A stretch of 64,000 nucleotides of DNA. Source: a virus. Lineage: Duplodnaviria > Caudoviricetes. The notes beneath the pieces are model-generated. The model did no database searches. It was not told where the DNA came from and saw nothing but the letters and a program-made list of their open reading frames with translations. Made by a program: the position numbers and the translations under genes. How positions within the stretch are numbered: position 1 is the stretch's first letter; every line of letters starts with the position of its first letter. The stretch is taken from IMG/VR virus record IMGVR_UViG_3300022752_000014; one strand, given 5' to 3'. Shown piece after piece: positions 19,919 to 54,424 of the stretch.

Positions 19919-19992
<74 letters not shown>

Positions 19993-19996
19993 CCTT

Positions 19997-20078
19997 GTCG
20001 ATGTGGCGGAATTGGTAGACGCGCTGGGTTTAGGTTCCAGTAGATTAATCTGTGAAGGTTCAAGTCCTTTCATCGACA
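19997..20078 (+). tRNA. tRNA-Leu(UAG)
   Basis: CTGGG-TTTAGGT-TCCAG; long variable arm. Confidence 0.92.
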
Positions 20079-20079
20079 C

Positions 20080-20112
20080 TTGACAATCATACTCAACTAC
20101 TCTATGATTGTC
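20080..20112 (+). promoter_or_regulatory. Sigma70-type promoter spanned by a 10-bp inverted repeat
   Basis: TTGACA-17-TATGAT; GACAATCATA...TATGATTGTC. Confidence 0.7.
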
Positions 20113-20118
20113 TTATAA

Positions 20119-20189
20119 GCGGGTATGGTGTAGCGGTAACACGCCATCCTTCCAAGTTGGAATCACCGGTTCGAACCCGGTTACCCGCT
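20119..20189 (+). tRNA. tRNA-Gly(UCC)
   Basis: CCATC-CTTCCAA-GTTGG. Confidence 0.92.
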
Positions 20190-20277
20190 CTTGGTAGTCG
20201 TTAGGCAGATAGCCTAGAAAGACGCCAATGGGAGAAGTGATCCTGCGGGTTCGCCCAAGAGCTCTCCTTCTCCTCAT

Positions 20278-20349
20278 TCCTCCTTGGCGCAGCGGTAGCG
20301 CAGATGACTGTTAATCATTTGGTCCCTGGTTCGAATCCAGGAGGGGGAG
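20278..20349 (+). tRNA. tRNA-Asn(GUU)
   Basis: GATGA-CTGTTAA-TCATT. Confidence 0.93.
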
Positions 20350-20480
20350 TTGGAAGTACTTCGGTTCTTCCAACTATGTTCTGGGTGGAATTCCCAGCGG
20401 TTTCGTTAGAGACTGTCCTTTGTAGGTTCGATGCCTACATCTTCCTTATGGGAGATAAGAGTGGCTACTGGAAACATAAC
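20350..20480 (+). ncRNA. tRNA-like multi-hairpin element of unknown class
   Basis: T-arm-like GTAGG-TTCGATG-CCTAC plus several other stems. Confidence 0.4.
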
Positions 20481-20482
20481 AC

Positions 20483-20554
20483 GGGCGATTAGCGCAGCGG
20501 TAGCGCAGTTGCTTTACACGCAATTGGTCGGCGGTTCGAATCCGTCATCGCCCA
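20483..20554 (+). tRNA. tRNA-Val(UAC)
   Basis: GTTGC-TTTACAC-GCAAT. Confidence 0.95.
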
Positions 20555-20582
20555 CTTGATAAATATTTAAAAAAAGAGTATA

Positions 20583-21284: not shown

Positions 21285-21295
21285 ACCTCCCCACT

Positions 21296-21380
21296 GGAAA
21301 GGTGGTCGAGTGGTTGAAGGCTCTAGTCTTGAAAACTAGCGATGTGAAAGCATCCGTGGGTTCGAATCCCACCCTTTCCG
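21296..21380 (+). tRNA. tRNA-Ser(UGA)
   Basis: CTAGT-CTTGAAA-ACTAG; long variable arm. Confidence 0.95.
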
Positions 21381-21494
21381 TTTCAATAAGTTACAAATTT
21401 AACAATTGCTTAATAAGTGTTACGTAACGAACACAAAAGATTGACTGTGAAAGTCTTGTGGATAGTATATAGTAGTATCACAAGTATTAAACCT

Positions 21495-21644
21495 ATGGAT
21501 CAACACACCTATGAAAACTGGGTGAAGATCAAGGAAACTTTTGAAGCTTCTGGCAACACCGACAACATGTTTTATTATAGATCTTGCGAAATTGTAAAAA
21601 CTAAAAAAGATCCTCTTGCAAAATTTCTTGGAGACGAGAAATGA
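21495..21644 (+). CDS. Hypothetical protein (49 aa)
   Basis: MDQHTYENWVKIKETFE... Confidence 0.6.
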   Translation: MDQHTYENWVKIKETFEASGNTDNMFYYRSCEIVKTKKDPLAKFLGDEK

Positions 21645-21844
21645 TGCACGAACAAGAAGAATTAGTTACACGTTCTGAAGTTCAGGAGATGATTGATGCT
21701 GCTATACGAAGGCACAATCGGAATGCTTCCATTATTAGTATGTGCGTTGGGTGGGTGGTTCTTGCTTTATTTGCTGAAGGACTGCTAAGACTGATTGGGG
21801 TTATTCCGCCAGTTCTACCATGGCTCAAGATTACTCTCCACTAA
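21641..21844 (+). CDS. Small membrane protein
   Basis: IISMCVGWVVLALFAEGLLRLIGVIPP. Confidence 0.65.
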   Translation: MMHEQEELVTRSEVQEMIDAAIRRHNRNASIISMCVGWVVLALFAEGLLRLIGVIPPVLPWLKITLH

Positions 21845-22131
21845 TATTTTTAGTTCCTTGGTTTGTACTTGTGGGTATTGCACTTTCAATGATTGTGCAA
21901 GGTTGGATGATTATGAATGCTCAACACGGGTATTCTAAGAGTCCAAAAGTAAAACATCCAGAGTTAAACGACGTTAAAGCAGGAGACCCGTTACTAGTGG
22001 TTAGATTTACAGACGAAGACATCGAACAACTTCAAAGAAGAGTTTTACAACAGAAGATAGACGAATTATTCGAAGAACCCTCTAGTTACGAGGACGACGA
22101 TGATGACGATGGAATGGCAGGAGTTAATTGA
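21820..22131 (+). CDS. Membrane protein, DUF2973-like
   Basis: N-terminal TM, KHPEL...LLVVRF. Confidence 0.55.
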   Translation: MAQDYSPLIFLVPWFVLVGIALSMIVQGWMIMNAQHGYSKSPKVKHPELNDVKAGDPLLVVRFTDEDIEQLQRRVLQQKIDELFEEPSSYEDDDDDDGMAGVN

Positions 22132-22222
22132 ATTCCTTACAAAACAAATCTTGATTTTTATCGTGTTTATGTGTGGACTTATTGTTGGTTATGTTTATGG
22201 ACTACGAGAAGGAGGACAATGA
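22109..22222 (+). CDS. Single-TM micro-protein (37 aa)
   Basis: MEWQELIEFLTKQILIFIVFMCGLIVGYVYGLREGGQ*. Confidence 0.55.
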   Translation: MEWQELIEFLTKQILIFIVFMCGLIVGYVYGLREGGQ

Positions 22223-22311
22223 ACAAAAATTTACTGTTCAATGCATTAACTGTAATTGGTGCAATTGGATGCTTTGTTATATGGGGTTTAAATAACGCTT
22301 ATCCACAATGA
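22219..22311 (+). CDS. Single-TM micro-protein (30 aa), NdhQ-like C-terminus
   Basis: MNKNLLFNALTVIGAIGCFVIWGLNNAYPQ*; GGAGG SD; ATGA overlaps at both ends. Confidence 0.55.
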   Translation: MNKNLLFNALTVIGAIGCFVIWGLNNAYPQ

Positions 22312-22808
22312 AAAAACTCAACGATACAATTCTAACAGTCACGATTGCAATCATTGACTTTCTGTATCGTGACTTACCCATTCAAAGATTCTGGGTTCTA
22401 GAGACTATTGCCAGAGCACCTTACTTTGCCTTTTTAAGTGTGTTGCATCTGAGAGAGTCTCTTGGATTGCGAACAGATTCACACTACTATTTGATGAAAG
22501 AACACTTTGCACAAACCGTCAATGAAACAGAACACCTTATCGAAATGGAATCGCGTGGTGGGAGTAACCGTTGGATTGACCGCTTTTTCGCTTATCATTT
22601 GGTTATCATCTATTATTGGATTCTGGTGGTTTATTATTCTATTGCTCCCATCTCTGCTTATCATCTAAACACGGGTATTGAGTATCACGCCACAGAAACT
22701 TATCTCTCATACCTCTGGGAGCATCCAGAAGACACAAAGATCGCTGAGATTGCGGTTGATGAAATGAATCACTATATTGAACTTACAAGAGCAATGGAGA
22801 TGATTTGA
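22308..22808 (+). CDS. ptoX: Plastoquinol terminal oxidase
   Basis: RFWVLETIARAPYFAFLSVLH, ETEH, EYHATETY, DEMNH di-iron ligands. Confidence 0.95.
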   Translation: MKKLNDTILTVTIAIIDFLYRDLPIQRFWVLETIARAPYFAFLSVLHLRESLGLRTDSHYYLMKEHFAQTVNETEHLIEMESRGGSNRWIDRFFAYHLVIIYYWILVVYYSIAPISAYHLNTGIEYHATETYLSYLWEHPEDTKIAEIAVDEMNHYIELTRAMEMI

Positions 22809-22930
22809 TGTTATTAGCAAAAGCACTTTTATTTGTTTCAATTCCTTTCGTTTTAGCAACACTCTATTTCGGAACAAAAGGAGGGTATTATGACTCCAAA
22901 GATTATAAGGGAAACGGAACCGCACATTAG
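22808..22930 (+). CDS. ndhP: NdhP-like small subunit of photosynthetic complex I (NDH-1L), 40 aa
   Basis: MLLAKALLFVSIPFVLATLYFGTKGGYYDSKDYKGNGTAH*; TM + FGT.x.G.YD...Y.GNG.AH signature. Confidence 0.82.
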   Translation: MLLAKALLFVSIPFVLATLYFGTKGGYYDSKDYKGNGTAH

Positions 22931-23108
22931 GCAAAGATACCACTTTGCGACAACTGCATTTGTAAGAATGTGGGGGCACAGTTCACTACACGATCATAAG
23001 ATTGTAGACTTTTGTATTGAATGGGCACATAAAGAAGAGAATGCTCCACTTGACAACACAGTTGATCAATATTTTTATTATGAATTTAAGACTTGGAGGG
23101 GATATTGA
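22890..23108 (+). CDS. Hypothetical protein
   Basis: 72 aa; overlaps the ndhP-like ORF in another frame. Confidence 0.6.
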   Translation: MTPKIIRETEPHIRQRYHFATTAFVRMWGHSSLHDHKIVDFCIEWAHKEENAPLDNTVDQYFYYEFKTWRGY

Positions 23109-23260
23109 TGGGACACTTTGCAAGATGGGTATTAGAAAATCCATATACTCTGGGTATTATTGGATATCTGTTAATTGTTGTACCTATTATGGGTATCTGG
23201 GCAATTCATAAGTATGGTTGGCAGCACTGGGCTCCATTTGACAAGGGGCACAAGGAGTAG
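23108..23260 (+). CDS. Single-TM micro-protein (50 aa)
   Basis: MGHFARWVLENPYTLGIIGYLLIVVPIMGIWAIHKYGWQHWAPFDKGHKE*. Confidence 0.6.
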   Translation: MGHFARWVLENPYTLGIIGYLLIVVPIMGIWAIHKYGWQHWAPFDKGHKE

Positions 23261-23266
23261 TATAAT
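23238..23266 (+). promoter_or_regulatory. Sigma70-type promoter
   Basis: TTGACA-17-TATAAT. Confidence 0.8.
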
Positions 23267-23300
23267 TAGTTCTGTTGAGAGGCAAGACCACTCAACGCAA

Positions 23301-23374
23301 CGGGGTGTAGCGCAGCTTGGTAGCGCATCTGCTTTGGGAGCAGAGGGTCGCAGGTTCGAATCCTGTCACCCCGA
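23301..23374 (+). tRNA. tRNA-Pro(UGG)
   Basis: TCTGC-TTTGGGA-GCAGA; C1:G72. Confidence 0.95.
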
Positions 23375-23392
23375 CTCATAAAACTTTACATT

Positions 23393-23632
23393 ATGAAAAT
23401 GTACAAAGACCTTAACGAACTCGAATCATTTACGGTTGAACAGTTTCAGGTAGATTTTGATACTCTGATAGAAAGAGTTGAAAATGGAGAATCATTTATC
23501 ATAACAGATGGGGAAAGGAACGCGGTAATAGTTCCTTATAACGAAACTATTAAGTTTGCAGTAGAATCAACAGAATCAATTGTGGATGACGAAATGATAC
23601 GTCTTCACACTGATCACGAAGAGGGATCGTAA
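23393..23632 (+). CDS. Phd/YefM-like small protein
   Basis: FDTLIERVENGESFIITDGERNAVIVP. Confidence 0.6.
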   Translation: MKMYKDLNELESFTVEQFQVDFDTLIERVENGESFIITDGERNAVIVPYNETIKFAVESTESIVDDEMIRLHTDHEEGS

Positions 23633-23639
23633 ACTAACT

Positions 23640-23711
23640 GGGGGTGTCGCATAAAGGTCAATGCGCTCTGCTTATAACGGAGTCATCCTGGTTCAAGTCC
23701 AGGCATCCCTA
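23640..23711 (+). tRNA. tRNA-Ile(UAU)
   Basis: CTCTG-CTTATAA-CGGAG; T-arm CCTGG-TTCAAGT-CCAGG. Confidence 0.85.
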
Positions 23712-23766
23712 TGGAGGTTTCGTGCCTGTGAAGAGGAAACTCTGAGGCTGTGTAAATCCTCCTTTT

Positions 23767-23839
23767 GCTCCTTTAGCTATCTGGTGAAAGCACCCGACTC
23801 ATAATCGGATACAGGCGAGTTCGATCCTCGCAGGGAGCA
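23767..23839 (+). tRNA. tRNA with CAU anticodon (Met or Ile2)
   Basis: CCGA-CTCATAA-TCGG; G1:C72, so not a typical initiator. Confidence 0.88.
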
Positions 23840-23840
23840 C

Positions 23841-23870
23841 TTGACAGAAACCCTGTCAAACCCTTATAAT
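23841..23870 (+). promoter_or_regulatory. Sigma70-type promoter with inverted repeat
   Basis: TTGACA-18-TATAAT; TTGACAG-AAACC-CTGTCAA. Confidence 0.7.
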
Positions 23871-51893: not shown

Positions 51894-52973
51894 ATGACTG
51901 CTTCAATCGCTCAACAACGACAATCGAATACTTGGGAACAATTCTGCAGCTGGATCACCAGCACCGATAACCGCCTTTATGTGGGTTGGTTCGGCGTTCT
52001 GATGATTCCTTGCCTGCTTGCTGCAACAATCTGCTTCATCGTGGCGTTCATCGCCGCTCCCCCTGTGGACATCGATGGTATCCGTGAACCCGTTGCTGGT
52101 TCACTCATGTACGGAAACAACATCATCTCTGGTGCTGTGATTCCTTCGTCCAATGCTATTGGACTGCACTTTTACCCCATCTGGGAAGCTGCTTCCCTAG
52201 ATGAGTGGCTTTACAACGGTGGACCTTTCCAACTGGTAGTCTTCCACTTCCTCATCGGCATCTATGCTTATATGGGTCGTGAGTGGGAACTTTCCTACCG
52301 TCTTGGTATGCGTCCTTGGATTTGTGTTGCCTACAGCGCACCTGTTGCTGCTGCTTCTGCAGTGTTTCTTGTGTATCCTTTTGGTCAGGGTTCTTTCTCT
52401 GACGCGATGCCTCTGGGTATCTCTGGTACGTTCAACTATATGCTTGTGTTCCAGGCAGAGCACAACATCCTGATGCACCCCTTCCATATGCTTGGAGTTG
52501 CTGGTGTGTTCGGTGGTTCTCTGTTCAGTGCTATGCACGGTTCTCTGGTTACTTCTTCTCTGGTTCGTGAAACCACTGAGAACGAGTCCCAGAACTATGG
52601 TTACAAGTTCGGTCAAGAAGAAGAGACCTATAACATCGTTGCTGCACACGGTTATTTCGGACGCCTTATTTTCCAATATGCTTCCTTTAATAACTCCCGT
52701 TCGCTGCACTTCTTCCTTGCTGCGTGGCCTGTTGTAGGTATCTGGTTCACTGCTCTTGGTGTTAGCACTATGGCTTTCAACCTCAACGGCTTCAACTTCA
52801 ACCAGTCAGTTATCGACTCACAAGGTCGTGTATTGAACACCTGGGCTGATGTTCTGAACCGTGCTGGTCTTGGCCTAGAGGTGATGCATGAGCGCAACGC
52901 CCATAACTTCCCTCTGGACTTGGCAGCTGCAGAAGCGACTCCAGTTGCTCTTACTGCTCCAAGTATTGGATGA
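51894..52973 (+). CDS. psbA: Photosystem II D1, Glu130 (high-light-type)
   Basis: Full D1; YMGREWE; no intron. Confidence 0.99.
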
Positions 52974-53362: not shown

Positions 53363-54424
53363 ATGGTTTCATCTACACTTTCACAACCAATTCAACAAAG
53401 GGGGTGGTTTGATGTCCTGGATGACTGGGTTAAACGTGATCGCTTCATATTTGTGGGTTGGTCTGGACTATTACTTTTTCCCACTGCTTATCTTGCCCTT
53501 GGTGGCTGGCTTACTGGCACAACGTTTGTTACAAGCTGGTACACCCACGGGTTGGCGTCTAGTTATCTTGAAGGGGCTAATTTCCTTACGGCTGCTGTGT
53601 CAACGCCTGCAGATTCTATGGGTCATTCTCTTCTTCTACTTTGGGGTCCTGAGGCTCAAGGGGATTTCGTCAGGTGGTTCCAACTTGGGGGACTCTGGCC
53701 TTTTGTGGCACTCCATGGGGCTTTCAGCCTGATTGGATTCATGCTTCGCCAGTTTGAGATTGCCCGTCTAGTAGGTATTCGTCCGTACAATGCGATTGCT
53801 TTTTCAGGTCCTATCGCTGTATTTGTATCTGTGTTCCTGATGTATCCACTGGGTCAATCTAGTTGGTTCTTTGCTCCCTCTTTTGGTGTCGCAGCAATCT
53901 TCAGGTTCCTTCTGTTCCTTCAGGGTTTCCACAACTGGACCCTCAACCCCTTTCATATGATGGGAGTTGCTGGTATACTAGGAGGAGCACTGCTCTGTGC
54001 CATTCACGGAGCTACTGTAGAGAATACACTTTATGAAGATGGTGATGCTTCAAACACTTTCAAGGGTTTTGAACCTACACAGGAAGAAGAAACGTATTCA
54101 ATGGTTACTGCAAACCGATTCTGGTCGCAGATTTTTGGAATTGCTTTTTCCAATAAGCGTTGGTTACATTTTTTCATGCTTTTTGTTCCCGTTATGGGTC
54201 TCTGGACTAGTTCTATTGGGATTATTGGTTTGGCTCTCAATCTTAGGGCCTATGATTTTGTAAGTCAGGAAATTCGTGCTGCTGAGGATCCGGAATTTGA
54301 GACCTTCTACACGAAAAATATACTGCTCAACGAGGGACTACGTGCTTGGATGGCTCCAGTAGATCAGATTCACGAGAATTTTGTCTTTCCAGATGAAGTT
54401 CTTCCTCGTGGAAATGCCCTCTAA
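53363..54424 (+). CDS. psbD: Photosystem II D2
   Basis: Full D2 ending PRGNAL; AGGAGG SD. Confidence 0.99.

Follow-up and report, generated by a model that had tools for sequence, protein, structure and literature searches.

We identified a 40-amino-acid (aa) open reading frame (ORF), lying directly downstream of the plastoquinol terminal oxidase gene ptoX in a freshwater cyanophage, whose sequence supports its assignment as a conserved phage orthologue of NdhP, a subunit of the cyanobacterial NDH-1L complex. The window, by which we mean the whole stretch of DNA analyzed here, comprises 64,000 nucleotides (nt) of a virus of the Caudoviricetes (IMG/VR record IMGVR_UViG_3300022752_000014). The ORF and its immediate neighbors are the following:

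22219-22311, + strand: 30-aa single-helix ORF directly 5' of ptoX, conserved next to ndhP in relatives (present in 58 of 80 loci)
22308-22808, + strand: ptoX, plastoquinol terminal oxidase, 166 aa, directly 5' of ndhP (Pfam AOX, phrog_4235)
22796-22799, + strand: GGAG, a Shine-Dalgarno-like site 8 nt 5' of the ndhP ATG, within the last ptoX codons
22808-22930, + strand: ndhP, 40-aa single-pass membrane peptide (NdhP similarity, phrog_2173, pN/pS, family alignment, complex model)
22890-23108, + strand: 72-aa gene, phrog_593 (E 1.2e-13), function listed as unknown

The ndhP frame begins with ATG at 22808-22810 and ends with TAG at 22928-22930. An earlier sequence-only reading of this DNA had proposed a 40-aa ORF that opens on the ptoX stop codon, and this is what we found: the ptoX TGA lies at 22806-22808, and base 22808 is common to it and to the ndhP ATG (TGATG). 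The same reading called ndhP fused to the end of ptoX, a description that does not hold because the two frames differ and have only that one base in common; "translationally coupled" fits instead. From the TGATG and the GGAG ahead of it, we infer that ndhP is probably translated via coupling to ptoX. A program-made ORF list began the frame one codon earlier, at TTG 22805, and we rejected this start. Relatives carry CTG at that position, hence ATG 22808 is the conserved ndhP start. The ptoX product scored 51.9 bits with Pfam AOX (cutoff 22.7, E 1e-13), matched phrog_4235, which is labelled "plastoquinol terminal oxidase", at E 6.5e-79, and was 66-68% identical to annotated phage PTOX.

The sequence-only reading had likened the single transmembrane (TM) helix and the FGT...AH tail of the peptide to the C terminus of NdhP, and had suggested a sequence search against NdhP. 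A phmmer search of PDB chains bore out this likeness, with NdhP at the top and significant matches to chain P of Thermosynechococcus NDH-1L (6khi_P, E 5.8e-8; 6hum_P, E 5.4e-7). The next matches after NdhP were noise (antibody CDR3 regions). Residues 6-40 of the phage peptide and the C-terminal 35 residues of chain P form a gapless alignment, with identity at 17 of the 35 positions (6KHI, 6NBQ and 6HUM). A hydrophobic helix spans about residues 3-21; the uncharged hydrophobic run extends over 6-23 after Lys5 and is followed by a polar tail. The conserved tail of the product, FGTKGGYYDSKDYKGNGTAH, keeps the elements FGT, G-x-YD, Y-x-GNG and the terminal AH-COOH, and the full motif FGT-x-x-G-x-YD-x3-Y-x-G-N/D-G-x-AH is present in the window peptide. 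By homology, this tail would be cytoplasmic. The phage peptide resembles cyanobacterial NdhP (Sml0013 of Synechocystis 6803 and Thermosynechococcus chain P) in length, with 40 aa against 40-44 aa, and in having one N-terminal TM helix and an FGT-(R/K)-x-G-(F/Y)-YD-x3-Y-x-GNG-x-AH end. It differs in being virus-encoded and in falling into a clade apart from Cyanobium-type hosts.

Among the family libraries, only PHROGs gave a match: phrog_2173, whose function is listed as unknown, covers the full length of the peptide (E 4.3e-21). The window ORF belongs to this unlabelled family, and it was the search of PDB chains that tied it to NdhP. Scans of the Pfam and NCBIfam libraries returned no family for the 40-aa peptide, and we dismissed the sole NCBIfam row, FGAM_small_mem (E 0.16), as noise from the hydrophobic helix. 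NDF6 and PnsB4 of the plant chloroplast NDH gave non-significant phmmer matches (E 0.27 and 1.6), with weak local similarity in the tail motif, and the chains matched are far longer than the phage peptide (93-161 residues versus 40 aa). Judged by these matches, the window ORF is not a member of the NDF6/PnsB4 family. A weak similarity between NdhP and NDF6 has been reported (PMC4131877), with which the NDF6/PnsB4 match here agrees.

We found 102 homologues of 26-69 aa in a large protein collection (E <= 1e-3); the nearest are metagenomic peptides almost identical to the window copy, and the range extends to "hypothetical proteins" from Cyanobium, Vulcanococcus and freshwater Synechococcus. An alignment of 33 phage and cellular sequences (Cyanobium, Vulcanococcus and Synechococcus) has 11 invariant columns, with F21, G26, Y27, Y28, Y33, G35, G37, A39 and H40 invariant in all 33. 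Relatives are encoded on at least 488 IMG/VR viral contigs. By tblastn, ndhP occurs in 379 GenBank phage records, all of cyanophages; for scale, psbD (at least 80% identity) occurs in about 423 and ptoX in 99. Prochlorococcus phages make up 10 of the 379 ndhP records, compared with 34 of the 510 records that match the psbD query, and are under-represented among ndhP carriers. GTDB genomes contained 313 ndhP loci, and those among the 80 listed are named Cyanobium, Synechococcus or Prochlorococcus.

We assessed selection on 59 distinct DNA versions of ndhP, drawn from the window and its 80 closest viral loci. Mean entropy was 0.90 at third and 0.14 at second codon positions, and pooled pN/pS was 0.17. 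This combination of third-position variation and low pN/pS indicates that the ndhP frame is under purifying selection as a protein. One of four RNA-labelled runs (metatranscriptome X20) contained a 385-nt contig from a relative, with 24 differences in 212 nt, which covers 22786-22997, reaching from the end of ptoX across the whole of ndhP into the following gene; the library may contain DNA, and contigs give no expression level, so that this contig is not evidence of transcription, and uncovered stretches carry no information.

The 3' part of ndhP also contains the start codon of the following gene. Codons Tyr28 and Asp29 of ndhP together contain the ATG of the phrog_593 gene, so that the two genes overlap by 41 nt in different frames, and an AGGAGG at 22879-22884, made by the Lys-Gly-Gly codons of ndhP, lies 5 nt 5' of this embedded ATG. 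The ATG is present in all 80 sequences (79 related loci and the window), 69 of which open a 72-75-codon frame from it. All 59 distinct copies have TAT as the Tyr28 codon; the third base of Tyr27 is T in 30 and C in 29, and that of Asp29 is C in 30 and T in 29. A synonymous third base frozen at Tyr28 is what use of the embedded ATG would predict. In the overlapping stretch, pN/pS of the ndhP frame is 0.12, and second positions of the downstream frame vary freely. The marine phages S-H35, S-RIM8, S-SZBM1 and S-T4 have the same embedded-start layout. In S-SSM4 the embedded ATG opens zwf, 14 codons ahead of the GATGDL nucleotide-binding motif. P-TIM68 and S-SCSM2R have the ATG, and the frame it opens ends after 15-16 codons; S-RSM4 has the codon TAC at the site. 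In S-H35 and S-T4, both ndhP and the downstream gene with the embedded start lack annotation.

The region upstream of ndhP is less constant. Of the 80 closest viral loci, 22 have ptoX immediately 5' of ndhP with a 1-nt overlap (TGATG in 20, TAATG in 2), and 20 of these 22 have the GGAG at the same distance. Another 57 loci have ndhP without ptoX within 3 kb on each side; in the remaining one, ptoX lies at a distance of about 200 nt. The functional tie to ptoX implied by the sequence-only reading is weaker than its heading suggests: the overlap stands, in the window and in the 22 loci, but ptoX is absent before most copies of ndhP. Relatives of the 30-aa ORF, which carry an invariant W-G...A-Y-P near the C terminus, precede ndhP in the 58 loci mentioned above. 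The gap between the two is 8-9 nt in seven loci; many loci have a gene of about 1 kb there, identified as 6-phosphogluconate dehydrogenase (gnd) in both cases checked (n = 2), and others have ptoX. This variable content ahead of a constant ndhP suggests that ptoX is one of several interchangeable cargoes in an upstream slot. Among marine phages, S-RSM4 and S-SSM4 have the order ptoX-gnd-ndhP-zwf, with additional small ORFs in S-SSM4; the order is petE...ndhP...talC in S-T4 and nrdB-ndhP...talC in P-TIM68, and S-H35 has petF near ndhP.

We also considered whether the 30-aa ORF encodes NdhQ, to which its similarity was non-significant both by sequence and by profile. As a single sequence, the ORF gave no NdhQ match at E <= 10 in phmmer. 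A 12-sequence profile scored better against PetM of cytochrome b6f (E 0.13) than against NdhQ (E 2.2), neither of them significant; the NdhQ profile alignment pairs positions 6-28 of the ORF with 22-44 of the 45 positions in chain Q.

Elsewhere in the window, we noted the following features:

19919-20555, 21295-21381 and 23301-23840: tRNA genes
51894-52973, + strand: psbA candidate, 359 aa (size and position only)
53363-54424, + strand: psbD, 353 aa, 97% identical to that of Synechococcus phage DSL-LC03

The 359-aa ORF is probably psbA. ptoX and ndhP belong to a run of closely spaced plus-strand genes with a tRNA group on either side; nine tRNA genes (Arg, Leu, Gly, Asn, Val, Ser, Pro, Ile-tat and Met) flank the block of small ORFs, ptoX and ndhP. 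Sigma-70-like promoter matches (12/12) occur at 23238-23266 and 23841-23870. A megablast of 22000-23400 against GenBank phages returned nothing beyond the tRNA-Pro gene at 23301-23375, the sole near-identical phage DNA match in this interval, so that no close sequenced relative was found there. Metagenomes of lakes and other fresh waters, sampled in several studies, contain DNA near-identical to 21600-23300, which identifies the window as a freshwater cyanomyovirus.

We examined the lineage of the phage gene in a maximum-likelihood tree of 40 columns, which resolves only a minority of its forks, and used only its two starred groupings. The window falls in a starred set of 48 rows (100/85) composed of 47 viral sequences and one contig of a metagenome-assembled genome (MAG) labelled Polynucleobacter. 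The second starred clade (99/90) contains 49 Cyanobium-type cellular sequences and excludes the window. Together, the two groupings indicate that phage ndhP forms its own lineage and is not a recent capture from freshwater hosts. The Polynucleobacter-labelled sequence (CAYVBV010000048.1, a 13.7-kb contig) has a phage-type ndhP that groups with the viral copies, and is probably a mis-binned cyanophage contig. Several cyanobacterial ndhP contigs likewise bear non-cyanobacterial labels (Chitinophaga, Rhizobium and Sphingobacterium).

The phage copies also differ from freshwater host NdhP in sequence. Their N terminus is shorter, lacking a 5-residue extension (40 versus 45 aa), and the helix contains Ser-Ile/Val-Pro-Phe (Ser-Ile-Pro-Phe in the window) where the freshwater Cyanobium type has Ser-Gly-Leu-Phe. 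This Pro-Phe helix resembles NdhP of marine Prochlorococcus and Synechococcus. Like the Cyanobium type, the phage copies end at AH and lack the DVKR or KVLK extension seen in the marine sequences.

We modeled the phage peptide in complex with NdhD of Synechococcus WH7803 (Swiss-Prot NU4C_SYNPW), a marine stand-in that may differ from the NdhD of the host of this uncultured freshwater phage, and obtained a score of 0.78, compared with 0.00 for the best of three controls. In a benchmark, 58 of 80 solved complexes and 2 of 110 mismatched pairs reached the 0.78 mark, counts that are only rough because our model used its own alignment. Three runs agreed in at least 97% of contacts, with pLDDT of at least 78 for the partner and 78-79 for the peptide, and the modeled peptide touches NdhD along its whole length. 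Structures of NDH-1L with NdhP have already been solved, and the score may therefore reflect resemblance to these and add no independent support; the result shows likeness, not binding. To the model, the phage peptide looks like a normal NdhP. On the strength of homology and this model, the phage NdhP may be incorporated into host NDH-1L.

NDH-1L is one form of the cyanobacterial photosynthetic complex I, a ferredoxin:plastoquinone oxidoreductase. In the host, NdhP, a single-helix subunit of roughly 5 kDa, is confined to NDH-1L and needed for its stability, and all forms of NDH-1 have the NDH-1M core in common (PMC4131877); the sequence-only reading, which had described NdhP as a subunit that stabilizes NDH-1L, agrees with that work. 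In cryo-EM structures, NdhD is held between NdhP and NdhQ, which also make contact with NdhF, with interfacial lipids and with a carotenoid (PMC6992706). The two subunits have been described as "molecular glue" for the NdhD1-NdhB junction, and their loss lowers NDH-dependent cyclic electron flow and raises reactive oxygen species (ROS) in high light (PMC11794437).

We consider it likely, on the basis of the homology and the complex model, that the phage provides NdhP during infection and thereby maintains or raises the amount of host NDH-1L. The phage peptide would insert into the host thylakoid membrane and take the NdhP position on NdhD1, beside NdhF1, where it would act as "molecular glue" that holds NDH-1L together after host expression is shut down. 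Alternatively, it may shift the NDH-1M core common to all forms in favor of NDH-1L. NDH-1-dependent cyclic flow and respiratory plastoquinone reduction would be sustained, and hence the supply of ATP during infection. The neighboring genes would fit such a role: ptoX as a plastoquinol overflow valve, gnd, zwf and talC as sources of NADPH, and petE and petF. The searchable literature yielded no experiment on an NdhP of phage origin.

The helix differences and the absent N-terminal extension relative to Cyanobium-type NdhP mean that a changed function is possible. The peptide could be a true NdhP homologue that serves as a remodeller or antagonist rather than as a spare part, a reading that we regard as unlikely. 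It has two versions: (i) an excess of an NDH-1L-specific subunit diverts the NDH-1M core from the CO2-uptake forms NDH-1MS/MS', or (ii) the phage variant binds NdhD1 and alters or blocks NDH-1L; in either, carbon fixation would fall while ATP-generating electron flow goes on. In the accepted picture, cyanophages steer carbon out of the Calvin cycle, and the pentose-phosphate genes that adjoin ndhP in many phages fit this. The exclusive presence of host NdhP in NDH-1L, set against a core shared by all forms, and the separate lineage of the phage copies, with helix residues unlike those of the freshwater host type, also speak for a remodeller or antagonist. However, the phage copies keep every invariant residue of the cellular NdhP family, and the modeled interface involves nearly the whole peptide, as for a normal subunit. 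The sequence bears no loss-of-function mark, and the Pro-Phe helix is itself found in NdhP of marine Prochlorococcus and Synechococcus hosts.

Two further explanations depart from NDH-1 altogether. The peptide could serve phage PTOX as a membrane partner or anchor, with the TGATG fixing the stoichiometry, as the 1-nt overlap in 22 related loci and the GGAG ahead of it might suggest. We consider this very improbable, given that 57 of 80 loci have ndhP without ptoX within 3 kb, the slot otherwise holding gnd or nothing, that GenBank records with ndhP outnumber those with ptoX by 379 to 99, that nrdB is the upstream gene in P-TIM68, and that the peptide is homologous to a subunit of NDH-1. We attach next to no weight to the reading that the frame is never translated and either arose by chance or is conserved for the sake of an RNA element or of the overlapping downstream gene alone. 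A frame of a mere 40 codons in an A+T-rich genome, with its last 41 nt overlapping another ORF and with no Pfam or NCBIfam model match, invites such doubt, but the third-position variation and the pN/pS of 0.17 follow the ndhP frame, including within the overlap (0.12), and the homology to a subunit seen in cryo-EM structures is significant. We retain the supply of a working NdhP to host NDH-1L as the preferred reading.

The suspicion, voiced in the sequence-only reading, that viral NdhP might have been noted before proved right. A passage in a 2015 review mentions NdhP homologues in "some cyanophages", citing Schwarz et al. 2013, and passages in two papers cite metagenomic reports of phage ndhP. 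In GenBank, NdhP is named in Prochlorococcus phage P-TIM68 (AIR93506) and Synechococcus phage S-SCSM2R (XQU50139). These copies belong to the same family as the window copy (60-62.5% identity, tblastn E 2e-8 to 9e-11), and all three lie in the auxiliary-gene region of a T4-like cyanomyovirus. They differ in carrying a C-terminal extension (KVL...), which the window copy lacks, and in their upstream neighbor, which is nrdB in P-TIM68, a hypothetical gene after gnd in S-SCSM2R and ptoX in the window. The window copy comes from an uncultured freshwater lineage and is at most 72.5% identical to any GenBank phage copy. It is a further, correctly recognized member of a family known for over a decade.

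Most copies of the gene go unnamed. Among the 60 tblastn rows listed, only the P-TIM68 and S-SCSM2R records name NdhP; the remaining rows are "hypothetical protein", have no feature, or overlap zwf or gnd. In S-SSM4 (HQ316583 148760-148879) and S-RSM4 (FM207411 80184-80312), the annotated zwf start lies inside an unannotated ndhP, and in S-H35 (KY945241 133588-133707) ndhP is absent from the annotation. With Pfam and NCBIfam silent and phrog_2173 unlabelled, most phage genomes call ndhP hypothetical or miss it. A 2025 paper on S-SCSM2R described ndhP as "uncommon" and previously seen only in P-TIM68 (PMC12801897), a statement that the 379 tblastn records contradict.

NDH-1L drives cyanobacterial cyclic electron flow and respiration, and cyanophages depend on ATP from host photosynthesis. 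Correct labels for ndhP would change how common the manipulation of NDH-1 appears among cyanophages. We tentatively raise a broader reading, which we think somewhat doubtful: that ndhP is near-core in Synechococcus-type cyanomyoviruses and anchors a conserved cassette whose 3' end is a start pad. In this case, ndhP would be about as frequent as psbD and about four times commoner than ptoX. The cassette would consist of the 30-aa membrane peptide, a slot that holds nothing, ptoX or gnd, and then ndhP, and the invariant ATG within Tyr-Tyr-Asp would start whichever gene follows (the phrog_593 gene here, zwf in S-SSM4). If the 30-aa peptide were an analogue of an NDH-1L subunit, the phages would supply both "glue" subunits of the complex. 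In that event, control of NDH-1L would be a general requirement of cyanomyovirus infection.
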